Source: Patescibacteria group bacterium (GTDB lineage Bacteria > Patescibacteriota > Patescibacteriia > S139-126 > S139-133). From it: DNA of 64,000 nucleotides. The notes under the pieces are model-generated. The model was not told the DNA's origin and made no database searches. It saw only the letters and a list, made by a program, of their open reading frames with translations. This document shows positions 2,836 through 60,204 of this stretch, piece after piece. The stretch spans positions 56,455-120,454 of the forward strand of contig JBMYTV010000002.1 in the NCBI GenBank assembly GCA_049604715.1, in the 5' to 3' direction. Position numbers and translations under genes: made by a program. The first letter of the stretch is position 1. Each line of letters begins with the position of its first letter.

Positions 2836-2856
2836 GGGGGCGAAATTGGCAATTAC

Positions 2857-3363: not shown

Positions 3364-3460
3364 ATAACTTTCTTTGGTTTGTAGTATATCATTTTTTATG
3401 TAATCGAAAAATACTATAATTATTTTTTTGTGTTATACTATAGACAACTAAAAGGAGCCC

Positions 3461-4463: not shown

Positions 4464-4973
4464 TTATTTGATAAGAGCTCGGCTGCTCTTCCGAGTTTTT
4501 CTGGCTCGGCTTTTTTCGGCTTGTTGTTTTTTCCGCGCAATCAGATTGCGAGTTCCGATAGTGTCGCACATAACGTACGCCAGTATCGGAAAAACAATAG
4601 TACCGGCAAGCCACTGGGTCCAGGTCAACGGATCAAGGCTAAAGAGCCCATCGTATGACAGCTCTATGCCATACGCAGACTTAAAGCCTTCAGCCATATT
4701 CGCGATACCAGAAGCGAAAAGCACTAAACCGGTAACAACACGGACCATCCAGGCAAGCTCGCCATCCTTGAGCAGTTCGTCCTTGAAAATCGACATTGCA
4801 ACCACCCCGGCGTCAATTGCAAATGCGGCAATCGCCCCGAGAATTAAATTATGATAAAAAAACTGACTCATAAATGATGCGGTATGCAAAAACGTGGCAC
4901 TTAAAATACCGATCAGACACAAAGCACCAGGCCGATATTTAACCAGCTCTCTAAACTTGAATCTCATTTCCAT
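4464..4973 (-). CDS. hypothetical polytopic membrane protein, paralogue A
   Basis: 169 aa with about 4 predicted TM helices. The C-terminal motif TWTQWLAGTIVFPILAYVM is shared with the downstream paralogue. It has a basic C-terminal tail (KKQQAEKSRARKTRKSSR). Confidence 0.5.
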   Translation of the reverse strand: MEMRFKFRELVKYRPGALCLIGILSATFLHTASFMSQFFYHNLILGAIAAFAIDAGVVAMSIFKDELLKDGELAWMVRVVTGLVLFASGIANMAEGFKSAYGIELSYDGLFSLDPLTWTQWLAGTIVFPILAYVMCDTIGTRNLIARKKQQAEKSRARKTRKSSRALIK

Positions 4974-10700: not shown

Positions 10701-11792
10701 TTACAAACCTGCGTCTTGGAGTTTTTTAAGTAATTTCTTTTGTTCACTACTGAGCTTTTGCGGAACATCTACCTGAACTGTTACGATATGCTCCCCTCGC
10801 CTACTACTACCAAGCCGCATAGCACCTTTTTGCTTTAAACTAAACTGCTTACCTGACTTTGTGCCGGACGGGATTTTGAGAGTCACGTCCCCATCAACTG
10901 TCTCTACATCAATCTTGCCCCCAAGCACGCTTAAAGTAAAAGGAACCCGCTCTTCTGACATAATGACCTCACCATGCCGCTTGAACCTTGGATCTGGCTC
11001 AACATGTACATTTACATACAAATCACCTGCTTGCCCGCCCTGCTTGCCAGCATCACCAGCACCGCTCATACGGAGTCGATGACCACTTTCAATACCCCCT
11101 GGTACATCAAGTGTAATTTCTGATTCTTTTTGTTGAGTTCCACTTCCACTGCAAGTAGTACATTTGTCTTTGATTGTTTTACCGCTTCCACTACATGTTC
11201 CACATACTGTTTGGGTTTGAATAGCGCCTAAAAAAGTTTGGCGTACATGATTCACCTGTCCGCTACCACTACAAGTTGAACAACTTTCTGGGGTTGTGCC
11301 TTTTTTGGCACCACTTCCCTCGCAAGTCTCGCAACCTACTGATTTGCGCAGTGATATATCTCTCTTTACACCAAGCGCTGCATCTACAAATGAAATTGAA
11401 ATAGTCATCTCCAGGTCACGACCTCTATTTGCTTGTGCTTTTCGTCCTGACTGGCGACGAAAGCCACCAAAAAAATCTCCAAATATTTCATCAATATCGA
11501 CATCTGCAAAACCGCCACCACCCTGAAAACCACCAAATCCAGAAAAAGGATTACCTTGTGCACCACCACCAAAACCTGCCTGGTCAAATGTCTGCCCAAA
11601 CTGGTCATACTGTTGGCGCTTCTTCTCATCACTTAAGATTTGATAAGCTTCATTAATTTCCTTGAACTTCTCGTCGTTACCATCGTTTTTATCAGGATGA
11701 TGCTTGTGCGCAAGTGTTCGAAATGCTTTTTTGATCTCATCAGCTGAAGCTGACTTGTCAACGCCTAATATTTTGTAATAATCCTTTGCCAT
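10701..11792 (-). CDS. dnaJ: chaperone DnaJ
   Basis: J-domain (DYYKILGV...HPDKN), a Gly/Phe-rich linker and four CxxCxGxG zinc-finger repeats. Confidence 0.9.
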
Positions 11793-11856
11793 AGATACTG
11801 CTTATTTGAAACAAGGGCAGGCACAAAGCACCATCCTTGTTTCTTTATAAATAGTC

Positions 11857-12147
11857 CTATTCGGTTTTGAAACCTACTTGTTGATTGAGCTTGTCATTAC
11901 CAACCTCAATCTCGCCATGTTGCTCTTCATATCGCTTCACATTGTCTTGAAGTGCTGCAGCAAGCCGCTTTGCATGTGATGGGGATAGTAAAATACGACC
12001 AATAAGTAGGCCAAGTTTTTGCCATGGAAATATATTCATAAAATCCAAAACAAATTCTTCTTTACTATGAGTCACTTGCACTGCATTTGAGTAGCCGCCC
12101 TTGAGCTGCTCATCGGTTGCCTTAATTTGAATTTGTTGCTCTGTCAT
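11857..12147 (-). CDS. hypothetical protein (DUF3467-like) between dnaK and dnaJ
   Basis: 96 aa. The EEFVLDF motif is recalled as characteristic of DUF3467. The family name is from memory and is not verified. Confidence 0.45.
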   Translation of the reverse strand: MTEQQIQIKATDEQLKGGYSNAVQVTHSKEEFVLDFMNIFPWQKLGLLIGRILLSPSHAKRLAAALQDNVKRYEEQHGEIEVGNDKLNQQVGFKTE

Positions 12148-12160
12148 ATAAACGTATTAG

Positions 12161-14116
12161 TTATTTAGTTTCAGAGTCAGTGTCTTTTTTTTCTTCAAAG
12201 TCAGCCTCAACTGGCTCGTCTGACTTTGACTCACCATCAGCTGGTTGCTCAGGAGCGCCTTCAGCTGGTTGCTCAGGAGCGCCTTCAGCTGCTTGGTCTT
12301 GATACATGTGCTGTCCAAGTTTCATTGCGGTTTCATTGAGCGCATCAAGTGCTGACTTGATAGCTTCTGTATCTTCACTTTCTTTAACATCTTTTACTGC
12401 TTGCAACTTCTCTTCAACTTCCTTCTTCAAATCTTCTGGGAGTTTGTCTTTATTTTCATCAAGCAGTTTCTCAGTCTGATACACAACACTTTCGGCTTGG
12501 TTATGAAGCTCAATACGTTCGCGTTTCTTTTTGTCCTCATCTGCGTGCGCTTCTGCATCTTGCTTCATTTTTTCGATTTCTTCTTCAGTAAGTCCTGAGC
12601 TTGCAGTAATAGTAATCTTTTGTTCTTTGCCAGTTGCCTTGTCTTTGGCAGATACATGCAAAATACCGTTTGCATCAATATCAAAGGTTACTTCAACTTG
12701 CGGGATGCCGCGTGGTGCTGGCGGAATACCATCCAAGATAAACTTACCAAGTGTTTTGTTATCACCTGCCATTTCACGCTCACCTTGCAAAACATGAATC
12801 TCAACAGATGGCTGATTGTCAGCTGCAGTTGAGAAAACTTGCGTTTTTGAAGTTGGAATAGTCGTATTTTTCTCAATAAGCTTGGTCATAACACCACCCA
12901 GCGTCTCCAAGCCAAGTGACAAAGGAGTCACATCAAGCAAGAGAACATCCTTTACATCACCTTGGAATACACCAGCTTGGACTGCCGCACCCATTGCTAC
13001 TACCTCATCGGGATTAACTGATACATTTGGTTTTTTACCAAAAAACTCTTCTACCTTTTTCTGTACGAGTGGCATACGTGTCATACCACCAACCATAATA
13101 ACCTCATTGATATCAGATTTTGAAAAACCTGAGTCTTTGAGCGCTGCCTCACAAGGCGTAAGTGTTCGCACAATCAAATCCCCAACTAGCTCCTCAAGTT
13201 TTGCTCTGGTCATCTTTAGCACCAAGTGCTTAGGCCCAGAATCATCAGATGTGATAAATGGTTGATTGATCTCTGTCTCTTGTGCAGTAGAGAGCTCGAT
13301 CTTTGCCTTTTCCGCTGCTTCCTTAATTCTTTGCAATGCTAATGGATCGTTTGACAGATCAATGCCTTGGTCTTTTTTGAACTCTTCAATAATCCATTTA
13401 ATAAGCTCCTGGTCAAAATCGTCACCACCAAGGTGAGTATCACCATTGGTTGCTTTTACCTCTACAGTATTTTCACCATTATCAGAAAAATCAATTTCCA
13501 AAATAGAAACATCAAAGGTACCGCCACCCAGATCATAAACTGCAATCTTTTGATCTTTTTGTGCTTTATCAAAACCATATGCAAATGCTGCCGCAGTTGG
13601 CTCATTGATAATGCGCTTTACAGTAAGACCTGCAATTTCACCTGCATCTTTGGTAGCTTGCCGCTGTGCATCATCGAAGTATGCCGGCACTGTAATCACA
13701 GCCTCAGTAACCTTTTCACCTGTTTTCTCTTCAGCGTCTTCTTTAAGCTTACGCAAAATCATTGCTGATATTTCCGGTGGAGTATAGTCCTTGCCTTGCA
13801 TCTCAATAAGAACACCACCATTTTTGTCATCTTTTTTCAACTTGTAGGGCACCAATTTTTGTACTTCTTGTACCTCAGCATCATCAAATCGGCGTCCAAT
13901 AAGACGTTTAATTGAGAAAAGCGTATTACCTGGGTTAGTCACGGCTTGTCGTTTTGCTGATTGACCAACTAGCTTTTCACCTGATTTGGAAACTGCAACC
14001 ATAGACGGAGTTGTGCGGTTTCCTTCTTTATTTTCTAAAATTTTTGGCTGACCTCCTTCAATGACTGCCATTGCTGAGTTGGTAGTACCGAGATCAACAC
14101 CCAATATCTTTGCCAT
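12161..14116 (-). CDS. dnaK: chaperone DnaK (Hsp70)
   Basis: N-terminal [18 protein letters not shown], full-length Hsp70. The C-terminal tail contains a 24-nt tandem duplication encoding AEGAPEQP x2 (about 12241..12300). Confidence 0.95.
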
Positions 14117-14137
14117 ATAAATTCGTTTAATTACTTA

Positions 14138-14446
14138 TTATTTCTTAGTTATTTTATCTAAATCTTGTGCACATTGGAGCACATCATCAGCTGACAGTGG
14201 CTCGCTACCTGCAAAGGTTGCAACTTCACTCTTTTTTACATCTGTTAGGATTGCGGCTCCGTACATACCATGCTGCACTCCTGATAAGCACGCAAGTAGG
14301 CCAATTCCACAGCTTCCACACCGAGAGTATAAAAGAAGTGTACCATCGTCTGTTTCGCTTACCATTTCGATATGCGCACGATGTGCTGGTGCAGAGCACA
14401 TAGGACACCGTGATACTAATGCAAAGTTAAATGGTTTCTGGGGCAT
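14138..14446 (-). CDS. zinc-ribbon hypothetical protein inside the heat-shock operon
   Basis: 102 aa with CPMC ... CGSCG cysteine pairs, 21 nt upstream of dnaK and 4 nt downstream of hsp20. Confidence 0.45.
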   Translation of the reverse strand: MPQKPFNFALVSRCPMCSAPAHRAHIEMVSETDDGTLLLYSRCGSCGIGLLACLSGVQHGMYGAAILTDVKKSEVATFAGSEPLSADDVLQCAQDLDKITKK

Positions 14447-14450
14447 GAGG

Positions 14451-14882
14451 TTATTTTTTAGTTGTCTTAATTTTGATTGTTTTTGTTTCTTTTTTAGCTT
14501 CTTTTGGAATTGTTATCTTCAGAACACCATTTTCATACACTGCGTCTGATTTGTCTGCGTCGACTGCTGCTGGAAGTGCAACTGACCTGTGGAAGCTACC
14601 TTTTCTAATCTCTTTACGATAATAATTATCCTCATCGATCTCAGTTGTCTTCTCAAGCTTTCCTTGTAGTGTCAAAATATCGTTTTCTACAGACAACTCA
14701 ACATCTTCTGGATTTACTCCAGCTAACTGCGCCTCTACAATAACTGAAGTCTCATTTTGATAAATATCAAGCGCTGGATAAACAGTGGTTACATCATTTG
14801 AAAGTGGGCTGATTCGTTTGAACACATCATCGAACTCGTCCATGCTTTCAAGGAGTGAGGGTGTCCATCGAATAAGTGGCAT
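14451..14882 (-). CDS. small heat-shock protein, Hsp20/alpha-crystallin family
   Basis: 143 aa with an alpha-crystallin domain (SFHRSVALPAAVDADKSDAVYENGVLKITIPK). Confidence 0.85.
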   Translation of the reverse strand: MPLIRWTPSLLESMDEFDDVFKRISPLSNDVTTVYPALDIYQNETSVIVEAQLAGVNPEDVELSVENDILTLQGKLEKTTEIDEDNYYRKEIRKGSFHRSVALPAAVDADKSDAVYENGVLKITIPKEAKKETKTIKIKTTKK

Positions 14883-14906
14883 ATGATTATAATTTAATAC
14901 TCAATA

Positions 14907-16104: not shown

Positions 16105-16133
16105 ATGGTTCTTCTATACACAGAATATCAAAA

Positions 16134-16160
16134 TTAGCACTCCCCAGTCAAGAGTGCTAA
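16134..16160. promoter_or_regulatory. CIRCE operator (HrcA binding site)
   Basis: Perfect consensus inverted repeat TTAGCACTC-N9-GAGTGCTAA immediately upstream of hrcA. Confidence 0.9.
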
Positions 16161-16169
16161 TAACAGAAA

Positions 16170-16206: not shown

Positions 16207-16515
16207 TCATACATAGTATTTTGTGCTATCAAGGCGGTTATCGCTTTGGAAATCCGCAATCATTTTTTTAATGACTGCGCTTTGGTGCTTTTCACATGAT
16301 GTCCTTTTTTGACACACTTCGGTCATACGTCCGTCACGCACACGTTTAATCTTCAGTACGTACGTTACAACCGAACGAACACTACATTTAGAGCACGACG
16401 TGCCGGCGGGTAGCTTAACCAAAAATTTCTTCAAAGCCGCAGCAGGCAATGTTCTAATCTCAGTGAGAGTCATTGTCTCACCTGATGACTTTTTGTGACG
16501 CTTCTTATCAGCCAT
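16207..16515 (-). CDS. small basic hypothetical protein with four Cys (possible zinc ribbon)
   Basis: 102 aa, Lys/Arg-rich, with CSKC...C...C spacing. Confidence 0.4.
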   Translation of the reverse strand: MADKKRHKKSSGETMTLTEIRTLPAAALKKFLVKLPAGTSCSKCSVRSVVTYVLKIKRVRDGRMTEVCQKRTSCEKHQSAVIKKMIADFQSDNRLDSTKYYV

Positions 16516-16663
16516 ATATAATCCTTTCCATGTATAATGACTAGTTGTTGATGAGCTATCTGCCTACCTTACTAAAATATATATAATCTAGTCAAATAGC
16601 AAAAAACCGACCACTTTGGTCGGCATAAATCTTGGTTATATTTAAAAATTTTACCACTCCGGG

Positions 16664-16936
16664 CTATGCGGCGAATTCAATTTCGTTTTTGGGAATCCAG
16701 CGTTTTTTCCCGGCGGAGAGACTAATCAAGGCTTCATTGCCCTGAATTTCGTGGATGTTTACCTTCCGGCCTGCTTTGATAGTTGCAAAATTTGCCGAGC
16801 CTGTGCAGCACCGCTGCCTTTTATTGCTGATATCCCTTTTCACAACACCCGTCTTTCCATTCTGATTACTACTGTTGCTCCTTTTCTTTTTTTTGACAAT
16901 ACGACGATCACTTCGCTTGTTTTTACGACGTCTCAT
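16664..16936 (-). CDS. small highly basic hypothetical protein
   Basis: 90 aa with a poly-basic N-terminus (RRRKNKRSDRRIVKKKKR). Its own hairpin terminator lies at 16607..16623. Confidence 0.4.
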   Translation of the reverse strand: MRRRKNKRSDRRIVKKKKRSNSSNQNGKTGVVKRDISNKRQRCCTGSANFATIKAGRKVNIHEIQGNEALISLSAGKKRWIPKNEIEFAA

Positions 16937-17077
16937 GCAGTCACCTCATGGTAATTAGTTGTACAATGTGCCACCGTGCAATTATCTGGTTTACTCACGG
17001 TAATCACAGAATACAAGAAAACGTGCATTTCGTCAATATAAATATGAAAACCAGACATTTGCCTGGTTTATATAATT

Positions 17078-17389
17078 CTACGTTATTTTTGGAGGCCTCC
17101 CAATGGTGAGTGTTATTGCAGGCATCATTTTCTCAGCTTTTGCCTGCGCTGCAGAGATTAACTGTTGCCTTACGCCATTATGGATTGCCGGTGCTTTCTT
17201 GAGCACTTTATCAAAACGACAGTAACCGGCAGGAATAACTGGAAATTGTTCCTTGGTTACTAATAACCAACACGGTACTGGAACGTTTTTTAACTCGTTA
17301 GTTTTTCTGCGAATAAAAATGCCATACAGTACCTCTTTATTACTCCCTTCATTCACTTTTTTCTTCTTTATTACTTTTTTCCTTTTCAA
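17078..17389 (-). CDS. small basic hypothetical protein, 'PCW' paralogue 1
   Basis: 103 aa. The core LYGIFIRR...VPVPCWLLVTKEQFPVIPAGY is shared with the next two ORFs. A terminator hairpin lies at 17048..17069. Confidence 0.45.
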   Translation of the reverse strand: MKRKKVIKKKKVNEGSNKEVLYGIFIRRKTNELKNVPVPCWLLVTKEQFPVIPAGYCRFDKVLKKAPAIHNGVRQQLISAAQAKAEKMMPAITLTIGRPPKIT

Positions 17390-17404
17390 ATAAACTCCTT
17401 TCTT

Positions 17405-17695
17405 TTACAAGCCGCCATGTATACACGGCGGGTTATCAAATTTGACGCTCATCTTAGGCACTGTTCGACTTGCTTCGTTTAGTACCTTTGTCTTGAGCTC
17501 TTTTTCTACAGCATCCTCATTGTGCGTAAGGGTAAGCACCTGAACAAGCGTATACCCTTGCGGAGTGGGATACTTATCTGAACTAGTTAAAACTACCCAA
17601 CATGGAACTGGCTTTTCCGCCATCTCACCACTAACGCGAAACATAAACGCATACAACGTCTTGTTTAACTTTTTACTGCGTAGTGTAGCAACCAT
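17405..17695 (-). CDS. small hypothetical protein, 'PCW' paralogue 2
   Basis: 96 aa. The core LYAFMFRV...KPVPCWVVLTSSDKYPTPQGY is clearly homologous to 17078..17389. Confidence 0.45.
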   Translation of the reverse strand: MVATLRSKKLNKTLYAFMFRVSGEMAEKPVPCWVVLTSSDKYPTPQGYTLVQVLTLTHNEDAVEKELKTKVLNEASRTVPKMSVKFDNPPCIHGGL

Positions 17696-17717
17696 GTTTC
17701 TGTGCCTTGTTTTGAAA

Positions 17718-18005
17718 TTAGTCTAAGACATTCCAGTTGATTTCCCCATCTCTTCTCAATGTCTTCGTCTTCCGGGCTTCTTTCTTTGCTTTCTGGACTG
17801 CCATAGCTCGAGCTGTTTTCGACTTACCAGTGAAAGTACACCGGACAACCTCTGTTTTGCTATCTTTCAAAACACCAAAACAACCTTCTTTTACAGTAAT
17901 CCAGCATTCTCGTGGTTTATGTTTTATTTTTCTTAGTTTATACACTACTAAATACAAAGTGACATCCGAATCCAATGAGTGATCCGTTAATCTTCTCTTC
18001 TTCAT
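17718..18005 (-). CDS. small basic hypothetical protein, divergent 'PCW' paralogue 3
   Basis: 95 aa. LYLVVYKLRK...KPRECWITVKEGCFGV has the same spacing of the Leu-Tyr, Pro and Cys-Trp residues. A perfect 11-bp-stem terminator lies at 18077..18101. Confidence 0.4.
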   Translation of the reverse strand: MKKRRLTDHSLDSDVTLYLVVYKLRKIKHKPRECWITVKEGCFGVLKDSKTEVVRCTFTGKSKTARAMAVQKAKKEARKTKTLRRDGEINWNVLD

Positions 18006-18120
18006 GGCTGAGCCTCTTTTTTTGAATGTTCTATTCCATGCGTACTGTAGACCGTATATGATATATTGTCAAAAATAAAACATCGGATTTTCCGATGTTT
18101 TTTGTATATCCAGAATCAAA

Positions 18121-18474
18121 TCACCTTGCGTTCTTAGCGCCCTTTAGAGTGATAAAAACCCTCATGCCGGCTTTGCGGAACACTTTTTTGATCATGTCAG
18201 CATGTTCACTCTTTTGATCTCTCGTCATGACCAAAAATGGATTCATCTTACTAACCTTTTGCAGAACCAGAATCTGTCCGGCAAGTGAACTGTTGATAAC
18301 AGCTTCGCTGATATCAACAATGATGCGACTACGCTCGTTCCATTGCTGATACGATTTCGCAGCATCACTCAACGTAGTAGTTGCACCAGCAACATTACCA
18401 CTGACTTTCCATACAGCCATCTTCCCGTTCTTTGTATTAATGCTACTCTTCTTAAGTCTAAACGGATTAGGCAT
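18121..18474 (-). CDS. hypothetical protein, STAS-domain-like (anti-sigma-antagonist fold), paralogue 1
   Basis: 117 aa. VWKVSGN...IIVDISEAVINSSLAGQILVL...LVMTRDQ resembles the STAS layout (vvlDls.v.fiDSsG...). Confidence 0.4.
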   Translation of the reverse strand: MPNPFRLKKSSINTKNGKMAVWKVSGNVAGATTTLSDAAKSYQQWNERSRIIVDISEAVINSSLAGQILVLQKVSKMNPFLVMTRDQKSEHADMIKKVFRKAGMRVFITLKGAKNAR

Positions 18475-18492
18475 TACATCCCTCCAGATGGT

Positions 18493-18855
18493 TTATGCCG
18501 CTATTGCGGCGTCACGATTATAGACCACTGAATAACCGGACATACTAAGCATGGTTACTATGGCCTTTGATTTAGCATATTGCTTGCGGTCAAGCTGGAG
18601 CCGGATTGGGTATTTTACAATCCGCTTACGAATGGAGACAAGGGCCCAGAGAAGAACACTATTGATAGTTGCACCAGAAATGTCAAACGCAATTACCTTA
18701 TGATCACTCCAGAACTTATACTCACCCGCACGTTGCTTGAGAACGTCGGCATCATTTACCTTAACTCCGCGCTTCATACGCTCTTTAAATATTTTCCCGT
18801 ATATTTTCCATACGAGAACCTGTGACCCACTATAGGTCTCTGGTTTTACTCTCAT
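18493..18855 (-). CDS. hypothetical protein, STAS-domain-like, paralogue 2
   Basis: 120 aa. VWKIYGK...VIAFDISGATINSVLLWAL...LSMSGY is homologous to 18121..18474. Confidence 0.4.
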   Translation of the reverse strand: MRVKPETYSGSQVLVWKIYGKIFKERMKRGVKVNDADVLKQRAGEYKFWSDHKVIAFDISGATINSVLLWALVSIRKRIVKYPIRLQLDRKQYAKSKAIVTMLSMSGYSVVYNRDAAIAA

Positions 18856-18876
18856 ACAAGATTCCCTTCTTGTTTG

Positions 18877-19371
18877 TTAGAATTTGAGATGGATTTTTAG
18901 CGCTCTGTTGGTAGTTGCCTGAATTTCAGTAACCGGCTCATCAGCATCTACCCACTCAATCCTCCGCATAGGCAATCGAACAATGTACTTATTGCCAATG
19001 AAAACAAAAATATAGTCCAGAAAACAGGCATCTTTTACCACACGAAGAACCATTCCTTTGGTTAACTCGATTGGAACTTCAAGTTCCTTAAACACCGGCT
19101 TCCGTTGCCTACCAGGAAATGCCATTCTTTCTGCCGCACGAACTGCACTCATATCACCGAGCTTGCTAAAATCAACAACCTCGCTAACATATGCCCAGGA
19201 ATTAAAGGCGCTGGTTATATTAATAGCACCAATTCTACTCGGCGATGTGATACGAATCTTAGTAGAACGAGCGGTTCGTTTTTTTGAATCTGACTTTCTC
19301 CTCCTTCCTTTACCTTTTTTCTTTTCTTCACCATTTTCTTTCTTTTTGCCTGGTCTAATCAGCTTTGCCAT
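18877..19371 (-). CDS. hypothetical protein with Lys/Arg-rich N-terminal tail and conserved-looking C-terminal domain
   Basis: The track ORF starts at 19494 (205 aa). The internal Met (MAKLIRPGKKKENGEEKKKGKGRRRK) at 19371 has a GAGGG Shine-Dalgarno 7 nt upstream. The 41-aa hydrophobic extension from 19494 has no Shine-Dalgarno, but sits only 8 nt after the ftsW stop. The true start is ambiguous. Confidence 0.4.
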   Translation of the reverse strand: MAKLIRPGKKKENGEEKKKGKGRRRKSDSKKRTARSTKIRITSPSRIGAINITSAFNSWAYVSEVVDFSKLGDMSAVRAAERMAFPGRQRKPVFKELEVPIELTKGMVLRVVKDACFLDYIFVFIGNKYIVRLPMRRIEWVDADEPVTEIQATTNRALKIHLKF

Positions 19372-19502
19372 AGCACCCTCGCTGTAGTTAGTGAATGTGA
19401 ATTGGATTAAATCAACTAGATATAGATATGAGTTATAAAAGATCAAAAAAATTAAACCTAAAAGGTTTAATAATAAATACCAATTTTCTCTCATTTTGTC
19501 AA

Positions 19503-20689: not shown

Positions 20690-22108
20690 TTAGAGTGCGC
20701 GTACTGCTTTTTCAAAAAAATCTCCGCGCTCAAATTCATGTGTAAAACTTGCAAAACTAGAAAATCCAGGGGACAACAACACAACTCCCTTTTCTGGTGT
20801 TTTTTCCAGTGCAAGCGCTACAGCCTCATCCATAGTTGGAGTATGAGCATATGCTGCATAAGCTCTATCATGAAGTGCTTTTTCTAGCATAGCACTACCC
20901 TCACCGGGCAGAAGAGCTACAAACAATGCTTTTTTAACAATAGTATCTGCAAAATCATCAACAGGAAGTTTTTTGTCAAAGCCACCGGCAATGAGAAATG
21001 ACTTTTCATCAAATGCCTCTAACGCGAACTGAGCTGCGTCTGGTGCTGTAGCAGTTGTATCGTTGTACCATATACGTTTCTGAAATTCTCCAACACATTG
21101 CATACGTGCCGGCAGTGCTTTATAGGATCGTATAGCTTTGACTATTTGCTCTTTTGTAACATCAAAAAGCCGAGCTACAAGCGCTGCAGCTGCAGCATTT
21201 GCTCGGTTATGCTCACCTACAAGTGGTATGTCTTCTGCATGAAGAATGGTCTTTTCTTCTCCATCTAATACTTCTCTAAGCTCGTCATCAAGCCAATACA
21301 CCCCCTTTTCAACAGACTTTCTTGTAGAAAATGCTAATTTTTGTGCTTTGTTAGTATCAGCCAGAGTAGCCGCGTACTCATTGTCAGCATTATAAACAAA
21401 AACATCATCAGTTGATTGATACTTTTCTATAACAGACTTTGCTGCTATATAATTCTCCATTGTCTTATGCCTGTTCAGATGTTCAGGAAAAATGTTAGTC
21501 AGCACACCAACATGTGGACTTCTGTGGATAGCATCCATATCTTCAAGTTGCCAAGATGAAAGCTCAAGAACAACAAACGGAATAGTTGGATCTTCATTCA
21601 CAACATCAATGATCTCAAACATTGGTGTGATCTTGATATTGCCCGCCACTGGCACTGTTGGATAAGTAGTATGTATCATATCCCCCAGCATAGATGTTGT
21701 TGTGGACTTGCCCTTACTACCCGTAATACCAATGATCGGCTTCTCACAAAGTAAAAAAAATAGACTTGCCTCATTGTAAACAGGCACATCATGAGCTTTT
21801 GCATGTAAAATGTACGGCGAGTCAACTGGTACATCTGGATTTTTAATAACCAGATCTGTATTTTCGAAATCTTCCTCCCGATGCTCACCAAAAACATATA
21901 TGAGTTTACTTGCAGCGCCGAGCTGCTCAGCAACTACTTCTAATTTTTCTATAGATGGCTTAAGCTGATCTGATGTTTTAAGGTCAGTAACAACAACGTG
22001 CTTAGCGTGCTGCAATAACCACTGCGTCACAGACAAACCACCGCCATGAAGTCCAAGTCCCATGACGGTTACTGTTTTATCTTTTATATACTGATCAAGT
22101 GGATTCAT
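20690..22108 (-). CDS. murD: UDP-N-acetylmuramoylalanine--D-glutamate ligase
   Basis: Mur ligase with the MurD-type N-terminal Rossmann (VMGLGLHGGGLSVTQWLL..HVVVTD) and a central GITGSKGKSTT P-loop. Confidence 0.85.
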   Translation of the reverse strand: MNPLDQYIKDKTVTVMGLGLHGGGLSVTQWLLQHAKHVVVTDLKTSDQLKPSIEKLEVVAEQLGAASKLIYVFGEHREEDFENTDLVIKNPDVPVDSPYILHAKAHDVPVYNEASLFFLLCEKPIIGITGSKGKSTTTSMLGDMIHTTYPTVPVAGNIKITPMFEIIDVVNEDPTIPFVVLELSSWQLEDMDAIHRSPHVGVLTNIFPEHLNRHKTMENYIAAKSVIEKYQSTDDVFVYNADNEYAATLADTNKAQKLAFSTRKSVEKGVYWLDDELREVLDGEEKTILHAEDIPLVGEHNRANAAAAALVARLFDVTKEQIVKAIRSYKALPARMQCVGEFQKRIWYNDTTATAPDAAQFALEAFDEKSFLIAGGFDKKLPVDDFADTIVKKALFVALLPGEGSAMLEKALHDRAYAAYAHTPTMDEAVALALEKTPEKGVVLLSPGFSSFASFTHEFERGDFFEKAVRAL

Positions 22109-22881
22109 ACAATAGTTGCCAAAAATGCACCAACGCCATACGCAATTACTGCTGCAATACCACCAACAAAGAGCATTTCAAAACCTGCTCTAAACCAATG
22201 GTAATCAACCAAGCGAGTGCGTAGTGCTCCGACAGTAAATAGCGCAGCAAATGTCATACCAATAGACCACGAAAAGCCATTTTCCTGTATACCTGGAATA
22301 AAGTATGGTATGAGAGGTAAAAAGCCAGCAATAATAAACGATACCCATGTGACTATTCCATGACGAATTGGAGTAGAGTCGGTCTCTTCAATAACACCAA
22401 GTTCGTCCTTGAGCATAGTATCTACCCATACTTTTTTATCACTAGTAATAACCTCTACCACGCGATCTAGGTCTGGTCCAGTAAATCCTTTTTTTGCAAA
22501 AATTTCACGCACCTCTGCCTTTTCTTTTTCAGGCACATGCTCTATCTCCCAGAGTTCTTTTTTCTTAAGCTGTCTGATAAAACTTTCTTCTGATTTCTGA
22601 CCCAAATAATTTCCAAGCCCCATACTTGCTGCATCTGCCAAAAGACTAGCAACACCGAGCACAATCACAATATTGGCTGAGAGCTCAGCGCCAGCAATAC
22701 CTGCCACAACAGCAAATGTGGTTATAATACCGTCATTTGCAGCAAAAACAGCGTCAGCTAAATACTGACCCTTTTCTTGATTGTGCCAATCTACGACAAC
22801 ATCCGGATCTGCAGGATCCTTGCCATTTGCCTTGCGTTTCCATTCTTTTGCTAGTCGCCTTCTTTCTTCTGGTGTAAACAT
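22105..22881 (-). CDS. VIT1/CCC1-family (vacuolar iron transporter-like) membrane protein
   Basis: 258 aa with NDGIITTFAVVAGIAGA and LGVASLLADAASMGLGNYL motifs typical of the VIT family. Overlaps the murD stop by 4 nt. Confidence 0.65.
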   Translation of the reverse strand: MFTPEERRRLAKEWKRKANGKDPADPDVVVDWHNQEKGQYLADAVFAANDGIITTFAVVAGIAGAELSANIVIVLGVASLLADAASMGLGNYLGQKSEESFIRQLKKKELWEIEHVPEKEKAEVREIFAKKGFTGPDLDRVVEVITSDKKVWVDTMLKDELGVIEETDSTPIRHGIVTWVSFIIAGFLPLIPYFIPGIQENGFSWSIGMTFAALFTVGALRTRLVDYHWFRAGFEMLFVGGIAAVIAYGVGAFLATIV

Positions 22882-22903
22882 ATGGTAATTATATCACGAA
22901 ATA

Positions 22904-23284
22904 TTATGTGTGTAATCTTGAAAAAAACTGCTTAGCAGAAGCAACATCCGCAGATATTTCCTGTATTAACTCCTGCTCTGAACTCATGTCCTTTGTTGTT
23001 CTGTGTAGTTCAAGTAATTCTACATTATAACTACCAGCACCATACGCATCATCCCAATCAAGTATATGCACTTCTACAGTTGCCTTAATTTGATTGAACA
23101 AAGTACTTGGACCAATATGCGTGATACTTGGTATGCTTTTGTGCATTTTTGTATTGCAATAGGAAAACCAGACTCCATATAAGTCTGGTGAAATATTTTG
23201 TGTATCAAGATTGATAGTTGGAAATCCAAGTCGTGTACCGTCACCTCTTCCTACGACTTGTATTCCAGAAATTGTCACAGACAT
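22904..23284 (-). CDS. monofunctional riboflavin kinase (RibF C-terminal-domain-like)
   Basis: 126 aa. GIQVVGRGDGTRLGFPTINL...HILDWDDAYG...VELLELHR matches the riboflavin kinase beta-barrel motifs (PTAN, E.H..DF). Confidence 0.6.
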   Translation of the reverse strand: MSVTISGIQVVGRGDGTRLGFPTINLDTQNISPDLYGVWFSYCNTKMHKSIPSITHIGPSTLFNQIKATVEVHILDWDDAYGAGSYNVELLELHRTTKDMSSEQELIQEISADVASAKQFFSRLHT

Positions 23285-24827: not shown

Positions 24828-26612
24828 ATGCTTGATGATAAACAAATAAAAGAAATTTTACTTGGTCTTAAACTTACAACCAAGGAAGAATTCCCTACAC
24901 TAGAAAAAGATGCGAAAAAAGCCAAGATGTCACTTGAGCAGTTTTTGTATAAGAAAAAAATTATCACAGAAGAGTCGCTCTATGAGATGTACGCAAAGCA
25001 ACTTGACGTACCGTTTGTTAACTTAAAAGAAATGCCTGTGCGCAAGGATATTTTGTTCACACTACCAGAACCACTTGCACAAACACACCAAACAGTAAGT
25101 TTTGATGCAACCGACGACCTAGTAAAGATCGCCACACTCAAACCAGACGACATTCAGATGGTAGACTTTTTGCAAAAAACTACTGACAAAAAGATTAAGG
25201 TCTACTTAACCACACCAAGTGCACTACAAGAATCTCTAAAGCAGTACCAAAAAAGTTTGGAAGCAGAATTTAAAGATATTACGAAAGTTGGTGATGATAC
25301 AGCTGAATTAACTGAAGCAGACCCAGAACAAGCTGCACAAGACGCAGCCAAGGGCGTATCTGGTGGAGACAAAGACCTACATGAACTTGCACAAGATCTA
25401 CCAGTTATCCGCATTGTCGATACACTTCTTGAATATGCAATATTTGAACAAGCATCAGACATTCATATCGAACCAATGGAGAAGAATGTTTTAGTTCGGT
25501 ATCGTATTGATGGTATCTTGCGAGATGTTATGACACTACCAAAATCTTCACAAACCGGTATTGTTGCTCGCATCAAGATTCTATCCAATCTAAAGCTAGA
25601 TGAACACAGGCTACCACAAGATGGTCGATTTAAAGTAGAAAAAGATAACTATAAAGTAGCATTTCGTGTTTCTATTATCCCTGTATATGATGGTGAGAAA
25701 ATTGTTATGCGTCTTTTGAATGAGTCAGGACAAGTACTAGGACTTGAAGATCTTGGATTCCAACCAAAGCCACTAGAACTAGTTAAAGCAAACGTAAAAA
25801 AGCCTCATGGTATGATCTTGGTAACAGGCCCAACTGGTAGCGGTAAAACAACCACGCTGTATACAGTTATGAATATTTTAAACTCTCCTGAAGTAAACAT
25901 TGCAACTGTAGAAGATCCGATTGAGTACCACATGCCTCGTATTAACCAAAGTCAAATCAACCCAAAAATTGACTTTACATTTGCGGCTGGTCTTCGAAGT
26001 CTACTTCGCCAAGACCCTGATATTATTATGGTTGGTGAGATTCGCGACCTTGAAACAGCAGAAATATCTATTCACGCTGCCATGACAGGACACTTGGTAT
26101 TATCTACCCTTCACACTAATAGCGCAGTTGCAACTATCCCCCGCTTACTTGATATGGGTATTGCTGCCTTTTTGGTGGCATCCACAACCAATATTATTAT
26201 TGCACAGCGCTTGGTGCGTAAAATCTGCCAAGACTGTATTACTAGCTACAACCTTACAGAAGAAATGATTAAAGACCTTGAAGCACAGTTTGATGTACCT
26301 GATGTTATGAATACGCTTGAGCGTGAAAAAATCATTAGCGATAAAAACACTCCAATTGATAAGCTGCTATTTTATCGCGGAAAAGGGTGTAAAAAGTGCG
26401 GAGAAACAGGCTATAAAGGACGAATAGGCATTTATGAAGTTCTAGAAGTTACTGACATTATCACCAAGCTCATTATGCAAAAAGCAGCAGTACCAGAACT
26501 ACGCCAGGCTTCTCTTGACCAAGGAATGCTTAGAATGATTGAGGATGGATTTATAAAAGCAAAGAACGGCGTTACAACAATTGAAGAAATTCTCCGCGTA
26601 TCTAAACAGTAG
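24828..26612 (+). CDS. pilB: type IV pilus assembly ATPase PilB/GspE family
   Basis: 594 aa with an N-terminal GspE_N-like domain, Walker A VTGPTGSGKTTTLY, Asp box, His box and the tetracysteine motif (CQDC...CKKCGETGY). Confidence 0.9.
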   Translation: MLDDKQIKEILLGLKLTTKEEFPTLEKDAKKAKMSLEQFLYKKKIITEESLYEMYAKQLDVPFVNLKEMPVRKDILFTLPEPLAQTHQTVSFDATDDLVKIATLKPDDIQMVDFLQKTTDKKIKVYLTTPSALQESLKQYQKSLEAEFKDITKVGDDTAELTEADPEQAAQDAAKGVSGGDKDLHELAQDLPVIRIVDTLLEYAIFEQASDIHIEPMEKNVLVRYRIDGILRDVMTLPKSSQTGIVARIKILSNLKLDEHRLPQDGRFKVEKDNYKVAFRVSIIPVYDGEKIVMRLLNESGQVLGLEDLGFQPKPLELVKANVKKPHGMILVTGPTGSGKTTTLYTVMNILNSPEVNIATVEDPIEYHMPRINQSQINPKIDFTFAAGLRSLLRQDPDIIMVGEIRDLETAEISIHAAMTGHLVLSTLHTNSAVATIPRLLDMGIAAFLVASTTNIIIAQRLVRKICQDCITSYNLTEEMIKDLEAQFDVPDVMNTLEREKIISDKNTPIDKLLFYRGKGCKKCGETGYKGRIGIYEVLEVTDIITKLIMQKAAVPELRQASLDQGMLRMIEDGFIKAKNGVTTIEEILRVSKQ

Positions 26613-26618
26613 CCATTT

Positions 26619-27839
26619 ATGAAATTCCACTACACTGCACGCGACCGTGAAGGCAATCTTGTTTCTGGTGATACAGAAGCAGAATCACGTGAAGCGCTTG
26701 CTAAACAATTACAAACTGATGGGTTGTTACTCACCTCAGCTGAAGCGCAGGGTGGTAGTTCTGTGTCACTTCAAAAAATTGTCACAAAACTCAAAACTAT
26801 TGGCACCATCCCACTTGAAGAGAAAATCTTTTTCACGCAAAATCTTCATGTCATGTTGCATTCTGGTATTTCCCTTTCAGTTGCTATCAAAACATTAGCT
26901 AAACAAACTAAAAATTTACGATTCAAAAATGTACTAAACGACATAGAACAATCTGTTGAACAAGGCACAAGCTTTGCGCAGAGCCTTGCAAAACATCAAA
27001 AAATATTTGGCGAACTATTCGTCAACATGATTGAGGCTGGTGAGACATCAGGTCAACTTGAAAACACACTCATCCAGCTTCATACACAAATGAAAAAAGA
27101 CCACAATCTTATCAGTAAAGTTCGCGGCGCTATGATCTACCCAGCAGTGGTTATCGTTGCAATGGTTGGTGTGATGATTGTGGTTGTTACATTTGTTATT
27201 CCAAAAATTACTGATTTGTTCACGGAAGCACGCGCCGACCTGCCACTACCAACCAAAATACTGATCGTAACAAGTGACTTTCTTATTAACTACGGCGTGT
27301 GGGTGATTATTTTTCTTATATTACTTGCATTTGGATTTTTCAAATTTATCAAGACAGAGCGCGGCAAAAAGATTTGGCACAAAATACTTGTTAAGGGACC
27401 TATTGTAGGGCCAATTATCAAAAAAATTAATTTAGCTCGTTTTTCCCGTACACTTAGTTCGCTTATCAAAACTGATATTCCAATTGTGAAAAGTTTTACT
27501 ATTACATCAAAAACAGTCGGTAACTATTATTACAAAAACATTACCCTCACTGCAGCTGAGCAACTAAAAAAAGGTAGTTCTATTACGACCACACTTGCAA
27601 CTGATGAAGATCTTTTCCCGCCACTTATCACTCAGATGATTTCTGTTGGTGAGGAGAGTGGTTCTCTTGATGATATTTTAGAAAACTTAGCTATTTTTTA
27701 TGAAGAGGATGTGACTGACACTATGGCGAACTTTTCTTCTATTATCGAGCCTGTGCTGATTCTCATTCTAGGCCTTGGTGTAGGAGCTATAGCAGTATCA
27801 GTTATAATGCCGCTATACTCTCTTACACAAAACATTTAG
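26619..27839 (+). CDS. pilC: type IV pilus platform protein PilC/GspF family
   Basis: 406 aa with two GspF repeats and 3 TM segments. Confidence 0.85.
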   Translation: MKFHYTARDREGNLVSGDTEAESREALAKQLQTDGLLLTSAEAQGGSSVSLQKIVTKLKTIGTIPLEEKIFFTQNLHVMLHSGISLSVAIKTLAKQTKNLRFKNVLNDIEQSVEQGTSFAQSLAKHQKIFGELFVNMIEAGETSGQLENTLIQLHTQMKKDHNLISKVRGAMIYPAVVIVAMVGVMIVVVTFVIPKITDLFTEARADLPLPTKILIVTSDFLINYGVWVIIFLILLAFGFFKFIKTERGKKIWHKILVKGPIVGPIIKKINLARFSRTLSSLIKTDIPIVKSFTITSKTVGNYYYKNITLTAAEQLKKGSSITTTLATDEDLFPPLITQMISVGEESGSLDDILENLAIFYEEDVTDTMANFSSIIEPVLILILGLGVGAIAVSVIMPLYSLTQNI

Positions 27840-27844
27840 TGACT

Positions 27845-30800
27845 ATGTCAAAACGGGGTTTTACACTTGTAGAGTTATTAGTCACCCTCGGAATCATGGT
27901 CGTGGGCGTTTTAGCAATTACACAACTTACGATACTTTTTTTGCAAATGAATGCAGAACAAAAAGCAAAAGTTACTGCCATTTCACTTGCCAATGAAAAA
28001 CTTGAGATCATCCGTAACCTTCCCTACACCGATATTGGCACTGCGGGTGGTATTCCGCCTGGAAATCTCATTCAAACAGAGCCTATCACTCGAAACAACA
28101 TTGATTTTACAGTCACAACCGAGATTGTGTATATTGATGATCCATTTGATGGTCTTATCAGTACCACAGGAAGCAGCGGATCCATATATAACACAAGTAA
28201 TTCTGAGGTGCTGTACTACTGGGATTTTGACTCGAATACAACTGGAGAAACCCCAAATATTGGCTCTGGCTCTTTAAGCTTTGTGGATACCTCACTAGAT
28301 ACTGGCTATCAAGGCGATGGCATTGCTATGAGTAGTGGCGATCGTATAACTACCACAGCTACTGGTAATGTTGATCTTTCAGAGGGCAGAATAGGCATTT
28401 GGTACAAGCCGAGTCTTAGTAATGCTGGGAATGAGCGAATTGTAGATTTTGAAACTACATCTGGCAATTTCTATATACGACGTCAGAGTAACGAAAAGCT
28501 ACAATTCAATTTTGGCGGACAATCAGCACGCTCATCTGCACTAACATGGAACGCTGATCAATGGTACTTTATCGAAGCTGCCTGGGAGGGTGATAATTAC
28601 AGACAAATATGGCGCGATGGTGTTCCTCTGGCACTAAAAGAAAATGTAGCAACCATCCCAGTTATTGATAACCAAATGAACATTGGCAACAGAGGAGATT
28701 CTAGCGAAATAGTTGAAGGAGTTCTTGATGAGTTGTATATACTCAATAATGCCCATAAATATGAGATATGGGGATATAATTACTCCAATCCGTACGTAGA
28801 CTCAAGTCCTTTAACTACATTTTATTGGAGTATGGACTCAACCAGCGCGTCGCAAACCCCTGAAGTTGGCACTGGCCCTATTACCCTTGGTGGTGACTAC
28901 ACTGAAACAAATCCTGCTGTTAATAACACAGGCATATATTTTAGTAACAACGGCAACCCTGACACTGACCATGCTTACATTCCTGCTAGCGGAAATATTG
29001 ACTTTGCTGAAAGTAGAATTTCTTTTTGGTTTAAGCCTCGAAATAACAATAACGTTAATAACAATAATGACTATTTACTCAAAGCCAGCGGCTGTAGTAG
29101 CGGCATGCTAGAACTAATACGAACTGATGATGAAAAATTAGAATTTTCATATGGCCCCTCAACAAATACTATTACTATAGAATCCCAAAGTTATTCTTGG
29201 AATAAAAACTACTGGTACTTAATTGAGGCAGCATTTGATGATGCGGGTGACACACTTCACGTATATATCAACCGCGAGGAAGTAGCGGTAAGTACCGGCG
29301 TGACTGTTGACGCCCCAATCGGCTGCTCTGGTCTTTATTTTGCAAATGAAAATAGCACATCATCAAAAAACGGTGATGGACATTTTGATGAACTTTATAT
29401 ACTTAACGAAGCGTATCCAGAGAGTGAAACCGCTGATCTTTTGAATACTGATTACAAACGAGCAAAAATAACAGTCGCCTGGGAAAACCAACGAGGAACA
29501 AGAGAGGTTTATTTGATTTCAGACATTGCTCCACCTGGTGTTGAAACAACTGCTGGTGGAGGTACGCTAATTTTCAATGTATTTGATGCTAGCGCTCAAC
29601 CAGTGAATGGAGCAACTGTAGATGTGTACAATGACTCGCTAGATCCTATTATTGACCTAACACTAACCACTGACTTATCAGGTAGACTTGTGCTTCCCGG
29701 AGCTCCAGCAACCTCAACATCATATGAGATTATTGTATCAAAACTAGGGTACAGTACTGACTATACATCTGCCGCCACCTCGACTTACACAAGCCCAGTA
29801 CGTGATCATTTAAGCGTGCTTGAAGGACAAGTCACTGAGGTCAGCTTCTCTATTGACCTCACTAGCACACTTGATATCACAACAGTATCACAAACCCTAC
29901 CTGTTACTTATCAGCTAAATACAGACTCATCAGGTGAGTCACAAACAAGCCCAACACTAGCACAAACCGCAGCTCACTTCTATCCAGTATGGGAAGATTA
30001 TCGTGGTAGTACAACAACCATGACTTATGGGCAAAAATATACTTTTGCCGGCTCAAATCAATGGACCAACGACAGCCAAGTATCTGTTCAAGCTAACCAA
30101 CTAAAGCCCCGCGCAGTTGCTGATAGCAGCGGCAACGTATATATAACGTGGTATGACAACTCATCGGGCGATAACGATATCTACATTCAAAAGTTATCCA
30201 CAGACGGTATCCCGCAATGGTCATATCCGGTCAAAGTAAACGGAGATAGCGGCAGTGCAGACCAGCGAAACCCAGATATAGATATCTTCAGCAACGAACT
30301 CTATATAGTCTGGGAAGATCAACGAAATGACACAGGCGATATCTACTTGCAAAAAGTATCATCAGGAGGAGTTATCCAGTTTGGTAGTGATATAAAAATC
30401 AATTCTGACAGCGGCGCAGACCAACAACAGAAACCAAAGATTACTATTGATTCTGGAGGTGACCTCTATATTGCCTGGATTGATGACCGTGGTGGTAGCG
30501 ATGATGTCTATCTTGACCGTGTTAATAGCGCGGGCTCAAATGTATGGTCATTTGAACAACAAGTAAATAGCAATAGCGCACCTGACATATCTCACTTTGA
30601 TTTTGATCTTGATAGCAATGACGATGCTCACATTGTGTGGCATGACGACCGTGGTGGCGACAATGACATTTATTTTCAAAGTTATGCATCTTCAAGTGTT
30701 GCCTTATTTGGATCTGACCAAACAATAACTGTGCAATCACCTTCATACAATCAACTTAATCCTCACATAGCTCTTGCAAGTGACAATACATTTTATATTG

Positions 30801-31279: not shown

Positions 31280-31896
31280 TGAATAATTTACATAACAATA
31301 AAGGAATTTCACTATTCGAAGTACTGATTACTGTTGGTATATTTGTCGTGGTAGTGGTTGTGTGGAATCAAATGATCATTCAAAGTTATCGTTCAGCTGC
31401 TTTTGGCCAAGAGCAACAAGAAGCTATTCGGCAAGCAGAGCGTGGTATAGAACAAATGACAAAAGAAATCCGTGAAATGTCCACAGCAGAAGACGGCTCA
31501 TATGCTCTTGAATTAGCTGGTGACAATGAAATTATCTTTTACTCAGACATTGACCAGGACGTACTTACTGAACGCGTTCGATACTACTTGTCAGGTACAA
31601 CACTTTATAGAGGCACAGTCGAACCGTCTGGAGACCCACTAAGTTATGACACGGGGAGTGAGGTTGTAGCTCAGCTCGCAACTTATGTAAACAACACTAG
31701 CACAAGCATGTTTACTTATTACAATGATCAGTACCCATTTGATGATGTAAACAATCCCCTTCCTGCACCAGCTCGTTTGATTGAAACAAAACTACTTCAT
31801 GTTTTCTTGCGCATAAATATCGACCCAACCCAAGCACCTAACGATTTTGATGTTGAATCTGATGTGCAACTGAGGAATCTAAAGTCAAACTTATGA
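31279..31896 (+). CDS. pseudopilin / minor pilin with prepilin-type N-terminus
   Basis: MNNLHNNKG|ISLFEVLITVGIFVVVVVV: Gly-1, Glu+5 and a hydrophobic alpha1 helix. 205 aa. Confidence 0.7.
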   Translation: MNNLHNNKGISLFEVLITVGIFVVVVVVWNQMIIQSYRSAAFGQEQQEAIRQAERGIEQMTKEIREMSTAEDGSYALELAGDNEIIFYSDIDQDVLTERVRYYLSGTTLYRGTVEPSGDPLSYDTGSEVVAQLATYVNNTSTSMFTYYNDQYPFDDVNNPLPAPARLIETKLLHVFLRINIDPTQAPNDFDVESDVQLRNLKSNL

Positions 31897-33290: not shown

Positions 33291-33295
33291 AACCC

Positions 33296-35439: not shown

Positions 35440-35444
35440 CTTAT

Positions 35445-58704: not shown

Positions 58705-58846
58705 AACCCTTTAATAATAACAGATATACTGATCTAATAAAATAAATGCCTGGGGGTATTGATTTTTTTCAAGATTTATGTTTTAATATGAGGTCAAATC
58801 TTATATTTAGCTATTTTTTTAGGCTTAACCCTAGTATAATAGTGAT

Positions 58847-60202: not shown

Positions 60203-60204
60203 AC

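Follow-up and report, generated by a model that had tools for sequence, protein, structure and literature searches.

An islet of eight small genes, including a divergent pair of predicted STAS proteins, at the ftsW-hrcA junction of a Patescibacteria genome

Results

Eight small genes separate ftsW from the heat-shock operon

An uncultured Patescibacteria genome of the candidate phyla radiation (CPR) carries an islet of eight small genes in the 3398-nt spacer between hrcA and ftsW, and we analysed this islet within a window of 64 kb (contig JBMYTV010000002.1 of GenBank assembly GCA_049604715.1, positions 56,455 to 120,454 of the forward strand). The gene order along the minus strand of the window is mraY, a flavokinase-like gene, VIT1, murD, ftsW, the eight small open reading frames (ORFs), the CIRCE operator (controlling inverted repeat of chaperone expression), hrcA, grpE, hsp20, a gene for a four-Cys protein, dnaK, a DUF3467 gene and dnaJ. 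The small ORFs are termed here o1 to o8 by increasing window coordinate, o8 being the closest to ftsW (Table 1). A model-made first-pass annotation of the window, which had read the letters and their translations without database searches, had described this region as eight co-directional genes encoding proteins of 90-205 aa. All eight are present on the minus strand, but the upper size is probably too large, as o8 is more likely to encode 164 aa than 205 aa.

On the sense strand of the spacer, 8 ORFs reach 90 aa or more and together cover 2784 of the 3398 nt, as compared to a chance expectation of 0.23 such ORFs on average and a maximum of 3 in 2000 first-order Markov simulations. Codon usage, proposed beforehand as a check for non-coding sequence, designates the annotated frame as the best of the six frames in seven of the eight ORFs, the exception being o2, whose score nearly ties with that of its antisense frame. 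All eight islet ORFs have a Shine-Dalgarno core of 4 nt or more upstream, versus 20 of the 60 other genes of the window (Fisher p = 4e-4) and 14% of random positions, a contrast that may be overstated because the longest-ORF start was used and some host starts are possibly wrong. The eight translations, all of them basic (isoelectric points of 9.2-11.6), match exactly the proteins ACPGO5_01495 to 01530 of the NCBI metagenome-assembled genome, each named 'hypothetical protein' by the Prokaryotic Genome Annotation Pipeline (PGAP), and they also match exactly the Logan assembly of SRR27204692. It is to be noted that codon periodicity is weak across the islet and that the codon scores of most of its ORFs fall below the 5th percentile of host 100-codon chunks. 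From the ORF statistics, the frame-specific codon signal, the Shine-Dalgarno sites and the PGAP calls taken together, we conclude that the eight ORFs are real genes, far beyond chance.

The islet contains two old paralogue families

Paralogy was assessed by comparing Smith-Waterman scores with those of 1000 shuffles. The pairs o3-o4 (z = 12.9) and o6-o7 (z = 7.7) gave scores that none of the shuffles reached, and the pairs o3-o5 (z = 5.3, reached by 1 of 1000 shuffles) and o4-o5 (z = 4.3, reached by 3 of 1000) gave marginal, collinear alignments. As these alignments are collinear and o5 carries an LY...P..CW core in common with o3 and o4, a triplication is probable, with o5 as a distant member. 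The two families proposed in the first-pass annotation are thus solid under shuffle statistics for o3/o4 and for o6/o7, and marginal for the membership of o5 in the triplet. The o6 and o7 proteins have the motifs VWK..G and DIS.A.INS in common. Between islet paralogues the proportion of synonymous differences (pS) is saturated at 0.71-0.75 and that of nonsynonymous differences (pN) is ~0.49; the saturation of synonymous sites indicates that the duplications are old. The match of o5 to SCP2 in Pfam stays below the cutoff (19.3 versus 21.3 bits) and was not retained, since neither o3 nor o4 shows it.

The o7-o6 tandem is under purifying selection and is predicted to adopt a STAS fold

An exhaustive HMMER search of 1.84 G cluster representatives with an o6/o7 profile returned one true relative, P0007, a protein of 116 aa that is 60% identical to o6. 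Two other proteins from this search, P0008 and P0009, were discarded as repeat-protein false positives. P0007 is encoded on two identical short ENA contigs (L083 and L084), where a partial o7 orthologue, also 60% identical, lies 21 nt upstream. Differences between the window and L083 number 28/23/71 at the first, second and third codon positions of o7 and 32/26/68 at those of o6, with a pN of 0.25 and a saturated pS of 0.75-0.91. Since third-position changes dominate and pN is below pS, the o7-o6 tandem is a conserved protein-coding unit under purifying selection, the duplication of which is older than the split of its two carriers. Past the tandem the two carriers differ: on L083 a new ORF, preceded by an AAGGGA site, begins 10 nt after the stop of the o6 orthologue (677-692) and the contig ends there, whereas the window has a terminator and a promoter at this place.

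An AlphaFold2 (AF2) model of o7 was obtained from the alignment of o7 with o6, with a predicted local distance difference test score (pLDDT) of 78.5 and a predicted template modelling score (pTM) of 0.71. Its elements follow the order β-β-(β-β)-α-β-α-β-α-α-β-α, and the predicted fold has the four- to five-stranded β-sheet, the four helices and the initial β-hairpin of STAS domains. The STAS comparison for this fold names RsbS, RsbR, RsbV, the STAS domains of SLC26 and MlaB. The four available sequences of the o6/o7 type all carry the G that ends strand 2 and the motif D-I-(S/T/R)-x-A-x-I-N-(S/T), whose final position (INS, INT, INSS or INST) is S or T in every one of them. In the o7 model, S66 is the first residue of helix 66-78 (α2), and it is at the start of helix α2 that SpoIIAA Ser58 and RsbV Ser56 are phosphorylated. 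Membership of o6 and o7 in the STAS superfamily, at which the first-pass annotation had guessed, is therefore a proposition supported by the predicted fold and the motif, not by sequence statistics.

The likeness to the SpoIIAA/RsbV antagonists (PDB 4qtp, 1tid_B, 1sbo and 6m36_B) extends to size (o7 being equal to them, at ~115-120 aa), to the G that ends strand 2 and to the D-I-S...I-N-S/T motif, which would put a Ser or Thr at the start of helix α2. Furthermore, the side-by-side arrangement of two antagonist-like paralogues recalls RsbR/RsbS or the RsbV1/RsbV2 pair of Chlamydia. In contrast to these antagonists, o6 and o7 have Asn and not Asp before the Ser and a loop shortened by one residue, strand 2 of o7 is followed by an insertion of 10 residues, and the tandem is predicted to be co-transcribed with the unrelated basic ORFan o8. 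A literature search for STAS proteins or anti-sigma antagonists in CPR/Patescibacteria found nothing relevant.

Codon usage sets the islet apart from its host

The pooled synonymous log-likelihood of the islet is 0.009 versus 0.166±0.063 in the 60 other genes of the window (Mann-Whitney p = 1.8e-7), and its pooled G+C content at synonymous third codon positions (GC3s) is 0.389 versus 0.288±0.040 (Mann-Whitney p = 1.1e-5). The synonymous codon usage of all eight genes lies at the extreme of the window, o2 having the highest GC3s of all (0.466). The suggestion that these genes are probably highly expressed finds no support here, the synonymous codon usage of the islet being the least host-like in the window. 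Taken with the unusually strong Shine-Dalgarno sites, the atypical codon usage suggests horizontal acquisition. The contig of the other o7-o6 carrier has an overall G+C content (GC) of 50.6%, with 0.62-0.65 at third codon positions (GC3), and we infer a GC-richer donor pool with partial amelioration in the 39%-GC host. Elsewhere in the window, ORFs without Pfam match at 47958-48671, 4464-4973 and 45300-45602 have islet-like codon usage (GC3s 0.37-0.45) and may be foreign or spurious.

Small genes at the ftsW-hrcA junction differ between related genomes

Relatives were surveyed with one genome per GTDB species. Adjacency of ftsW and hrcA was found in only two of them, the closest ones, L003 (FtsW 72% identical) and L004 (69%), where the interval measures 1.1-1.5 kb and has a different content. 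The L003 junction (11519-12182) encodes, in this order, a canonical single-domain receiver (98.9 bits for Response_reg in Pfam) and a basic protein of 85 aa. In the L004 junction (2530-3366) the first gene specifies a basic protein of 101 aa and the second a degenerate receiver of 134 aa without acidic pocket or Pfam signal, which still aligns with the L003 receiver (z = 6.2). No homologue of o1-o8 was detectable in L003, L004 and 120 other loci, in support of the lineage-specific character that the first-pass annotation had given to the islet. Homology of the o3/o4/o5 family with the small basic proteins of L003 and L004 was considered and rejected.

Among more distant relatives, murG is the next gene after ftsW in 43 of the 58 loci with a callable downstream ORF (its identity was confirmed on one representative by Pfam Glyco_transf_28 and Glyco_tran_28_C), so that the islet does sit at the usual place of murG, as had been noticed at first reading. 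The window, L003 and L004 are all devoid of murG. We conclude that ftsW came to lie beside the heat-shock operon by a rearrangement specific to this lineage and that the seam then gained different small genes in each genome. Every seam has a small α/β switch domain, either receiver or STAS, and at least one small basic protein, a recurrence that is suggestive. The receiver genes of L003 and L004 are similar to the islet in their position and in the pairing of such a domain with a small basic protein, but they have no detectable homology to o6 and o7 and belong to another predicted fold family.

Farther upstream, the division and cell wall (dcw) cluster itself is interrupted at 22105-23284, where genes for a flavokinase-domain protein of 126 aa and for the iron/manganese transporter VIT1 separate mraY from murD.

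The islet is organised in four predicted transcription units

The gaps between o8, o7 and o6 and those between o5, o4 and o3 measure 15-22 nt and contain ribosome-binding sites only, with no terminator. As these short gaps hold none, the islet comprises four predicted transcription units and not eight, namely o8-o7-o6, o5-o4-o3, o2 and o1 (3+3+1+1). The first-pass annotation had given every gene its own terminator; hairpins do occur at about the places it indicated, but they delimit only these four units. The hairpin at 16133-16161 was rejected as a terminator, being an exact CIRCE, the operator of HrcA. A TTGACT hexamer resembling a -35 box lies inside the CIRCE loop. No further copy was found in the islet, the one upstream of hrcA being the only one of the window, and the CIRCE marks the boundary of the islet, outside of it.

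Table 1. Coordinates of the islet genes and of the associated signals in the window.
Feature	Coordinates	Strand	Description
AT-rich spacer 3' of the ftsW stop	19372-19502	-	Non-coding, possibly with the promoter of unit 1, or else a hydrophobic stretch of 41 codons that extends o8 N-terminally
o8	18877-19371 (ORF to 19494)	-	Basic ORFan, 164 aa (205 aa from 19494), with its N-terminal third rich in K/R; opens unit 1
o7	18493-18855	-	120 aa, predicted divergent STAS-domain protein; Ser66, where helix α2 starts, is the putative phospho-acceptor
o6	18121-18474	-	117 aa, paralogue of o7, second STAS-like protein (predicted); last gene of unit 1
Terminator-like hairpin after o6	18101-18077	-	Ends unit 1; folding free energy (dG) -13.2 kcal/mol, z -2.9
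Promoter-like TTGACA-17-TACAGT	18072-18044	-	For unit 2; downstream of the unit-1 terminator
o5	17718-18005	-	95 aa, opens unit 2; probably belongs with o3 and o4 as a distant third paralogue
o4	17405-17695	-	96 aa, new family, predicted order β-β-β-α-β
o3	17078-17389	-	103 aa, new family, TTG start, K-rich N-terminal tail; last gene of unit 2
Terminator-like hairpin after o3	17069-17048	-	Ends unit 2; dG -12.2 kcal/mol, z -5.3
Promoter-like site	17036-17008	-	After the unit-2 terminator
o2	16664-16936	-	90 aa, isoelectric point 11.6, monocistronic; weakest gene call of the eight
Hairpin after o2	16624-16606	-	GC-rich 8-bp stem and T6 run, best intrinsic-terminator candidate; not folded separately
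o1	16207-16515	-	102 aa, basic, monocistronic, CxxC-x23-Cx5C
Terminator-like hairpin after o1	16193-16167	-	dG -12.7 kcal/mol, z -3.3
CIRCE operator TTAGCACTC-N9-GAGTGCTAA	16134-16160 (hairpin 16133-16161)	-	Zero mismatches, 0.01 chance expectation; overlaps the hrcA promoter

Features of the individual proteins

Two starts were considered for o8. The one at 19371 (M42), chosen by PGAP, has a GAGG Shine-Dalgarno site, whereas the one at 19494 has none and adds a 41-codon extension with GC by codon position of 0.27/0.20/0.32; the true start is probably the former. The TTG start of o3 is preceded at 6 nt by an AAGGAG Shine-Dalgarno site, and PGAP retains the same 103-aa form. The o2 gene has a strong GAGGTGA Shine-Dalgarno site and is called by PGAP but missed by the Logan gene caller.

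A hydropathy scan, for which no dedicated signal-peptide predictor was used, detected no hydrophobic N-terminus or transmembrane segment, be it in o1-o7 or in o8 when started at 19371. The maximum Kyte-Doolittle hydrophobicity over 19 residues (KD19) of these proteins does not exceed 1.63, with its peak within the STAS core, and that of the 41-aa extension of o8 is 1.79. Both o3 and o5 have Lys/Arg-rich N-terminal tails. The o3/o4/o5 family and the single proteins o2 and o1 could not be assigned a fold or a function, nor o8 a function. For this family and these single proteins, such tails combined with the lack of a signal peptide or transmembrane segment favour intracellular roles, possibly nucleic-acid binding, over secretion. 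The o1 protein carries the four Cys pointed out at first reading (C41-x2-C44-x23-C68-x5-C74), a possible zinc-binding site. Judging from composition alone, o2 and o1 most plausibly bind nucleic acid.

Database searches

Protein-database searches covered o8, o3-o5 and o6/o7, and the exhaustive HMMER search o6/o7 only. Word-indexed searches of 5.8 G proteins with o8, with an o3/o4/o5 profile and with an o6/o7 profile retrieved the query genome only. None of the eight proteins had a significant match in Pfam, PHROG, PADLOC or NCBIfam (best E-values of 0.0023 for one protein in PHROG and of 0.054 in PADLOC), and o1 had no match in any library searched. Viral and plasmid sources were equally silent: o8 had no phage or IMG/VR match, IMG/VR scans and tblastn against phage genomes (INPHARED, 50,697) and plasmids returned no match, and o7 had none among the viral structures of BFVD. 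Joint Genome Institute (JGI) metagenome scans with o7+o6 and with HrcA retrieved nothing, and neither Rfam nor a tRNA scan detected anything in the window.

Other features of the window

Between hsp20 and dnaK, all three related genomes encode a protein of ~102-110 aa with two CxxC pairs (CPMC...CGSC), at 14138-14446 on the minus strand of the window, at 14024-14356 in L003 and at 5211-5528 in L004. Its only match is a sub-threshold one to DUF7837, and the heat-shock operon may have in it a zinc-ribbon protein particular to this lineage.

At 289-2835 on the minus strand (and at 12038-14905 of locus L127) lies the gene of an 848-aa coupling ATPase of the VirD4/TrwB type (TrwB_AAD_bind, T4SS-DNA_transf, TraG-D_C), surrounded by several ORFs without Pfam match, which may be a sign of conjugative or mobile DNA at a distance of ~13 kb from the islet. 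The window also has a cluster of type IV pilus genes (24828-35816), encoding a PilB-like T2SSE protein, a PilC-like T2SSF protein, PilM, PilN, PilO and a 1146-aa protein with an N-terminal methylation motif (giant pseudopilin). Additionally, a fused ATP-sulfurylase/APS-kinase and a sulfotransferase are encoded within a polysaccharide-biosynthesis cluster (57043-62117), which suggests a sulfated surface glycan.

Discussion

The reading that we favour, with a probability of roughly one half, is that of a horizontally acquired, lineage-restricted accessory islet of four units, inserted in the rearrangement-prone junction between ftsW and the CIRCE-hrcA-grpE-hsp20-dnaK genes. According to this reading, a truncated dcw cluster would end with ftsW, and the islet would lie between that gene and the heat-shock operon. 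Unit 1 would combine the 164-aa basic o8 with two anciently duplicated, very divergent STAS proteins that keep the Ser/Thr of helix α2. These proteins could act as cytoplasmic switches, possibly phospho-regulated in the manner of anti-sigma-factor antagonists, with a binding partner that may be encoded elsewhere in the genome or may be o8 itself. In unit 2, old duplications would have given the three paralogues that form a new small family, of predicted β-β-β-α-β order, and o2 and o1 would be single basic proteins, the latter with a possible zinc site. The islet consists of two operons and two single genes of foreign-looking origin, and nothing shows that they work jointly.

It resembles other ORFan islets at synteny breakpoints in its atypical codon usage, its patchy occurrence, the different junction content of relatives and its genes without annotated function, several of which have their own terminator-like hairpins or promoter-like sites. 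It differs from them in measuring only 3.4 kb, in being without integrase, tRNA target or direct repeats, and in comprising two internally duplicated families whose duplications are old.

Several observations weigh against this reading. As to origin, the islet and the window differ little in overall GC (41% and 39%, respectively), and integration hallmarks were not found, there being no integrase in the islet, no tRNA in the window, only short flanking repeats at chance level and no att-like repeats. Six proteins (o1-o5 and o8) are without detected homologue in the searches described above, and the AF2 model of o4 is of low confidence. As to the STAS pair, the assignment rests on one AF2 model from a two-sequence alignment, and o6 and o7 match neither STAS or STAS_2 in Pfam nor STAS in NCBIfam (E ≤ 1 for both), nor any STAS chain in a PDB profile search (E ≤ 10), which again sets them apart from SpoIIAA/RsbV. 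Comparison by hhalign with an unverified sequence of Bacillus subtilis SpoIIAA gave a collinear alignment of 70 columns that places N65-S66 on D57-S58 with an E-value of 0.06, which is not significant. Finally, and again in contrast to SpoIIAA/RsbV, no HATPase_c anti-sigma kinase, PP2C/SpoIIE phosphatase or sigma factor was found by Pfam in the 64-kb window, nor in the precomputed Pfam lists of its flanks of ~10 kb and ~7 kb, so that the usual kinase and phosphatase are missing, as the first-pass annotation had it, within ~80 kb.

Among the alternatives, the islet could be the remnant or cargo ('moron') of a phage or another mobile element that has lost its integration and structural genes but not its small basic proteins, which would resemble early-gene products. 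The atypical codon usage, the Shine-Dalgarno sites stronger than those of host genes, the ORFan content and the compact units, several with terminator-like hairpins and two with promoter-like sites upstream, would all fit such an origin, as would the patchy occurrence of o7-o6, whose second carrier is of very different GC, and the presence of mobile DNA on the contig as judged from the VirD4/TrwB-like coupling protein 13 kb away. We nevertheless regard it as doubtful, since neither an integrase nor a transposase, tRNA or att-like repeat accompanies the genes, PHROG gave no significant match, IMG/VR, the 50,697 phage genomes and the plasmids gave none at all, and o7 has no viral structural match.

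It is unlikely that the islet consists of native genes, fast-evolving or newborn, for which the junction served as a cradle, o6 and o7 deriving for example from the receiver gene of the relatives. In favour of this idea, L003 and L004 hold different small genes at the same junction, the L004 receiver has degenerated below Pfam detection yet still aligns with that of L003 (z = 6.2), and the weak codon periodicity of the islet and a marginal similarity between the L003 receiver and o6 (z = 2.9, reached by 13 of 1000 shuffles) point in the same direction. However, no similarity emerges when the profiles of o6/o7 and of the receivers are compared, a STAS and not a CheY-like fold is predicted, the o6/o7 duplication is old and the pair present in a 50%-GC organism, and the GC3 of the islet is above, not below, that of AT-rich host non-coding DNA. 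The more specific proposal that o6 and o7 are degenerate receiver domains like those of L003 and L004 was rejected on the grounds of hhalign and of the predicted STAS fold.

The islet might also act as a whole, as a self-sufficient and transferable regulatory cassette of new families beside the heat-shock regulon, in which the STAS pair would be a new subfamily and form the core, and would operate without canonical kinase or phosphatase (for instance by sequestering o8) and the β-β-β-α-β family and the zinc or basic DNA/RNA binders would be the outputs. This is a speculative scenario to which we assign a small probability; if true, it would represent a new stress or host-contact switch for a CPR lineage.

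The first-pass annotation had also proposed secreted host-interaction effectors. CPR lifestyles are commonly thought to be episymbiotic, and the lineage-specific, basic nature of the islet proteins, together with the type IV pilus cluster and the VirD4-like ATPase of the window, would suit proteins that are secreted by such a cell or injected into its host. We consider this improbable: the 41-aa extension of o8 aside, the proteins are devoid of a hydrophobic N-terminal signal or transmembrane segment, the sole recognisable fold is that of a cytoplasmic regulatory domain, and the basic tails are N-terminal and not C-terminal as is typical of type IV secretion system substrates.

That gene callers over-predicted here, part or the whole of the set being non-coding or in decay, is very improbable, though least so for o2 (which ties with its antisense frame and was missed by one pipeline), given that the low codon scores and the six proteins without homologue are outweighed by eight long same-strand ORFs where 0.23 are expected, Shine-Dalgarno sites before all of them, protein-level paralogy with pN below pS, purifying selection on o6/o7 and a confident predicted fold for o7.

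ORFan islets are common in CPR genomes, and the divergent predicted STAS pair extends a superfamily that is already known. Beyond this pair and the turnover of the junction, the locus is an ordinary accessory ORFan cluster, and nothing yet shows a new mechanism. In the three related genomes, the ftsW-hrcA junction illustrates, on a small scale and in nature, how genes turn over where synteny is broken. A large share of the genes of small Patescibacteria genomes defies annotation, and a divergent predicted STAS pair, under purifying selection and missed by every sequence profile tried, is a concrete and testable annotation for two ORFans. As such, o6 and o7 exemplify how much regulatory machinery may hide among the 'hypothetical' genes of the CPR.

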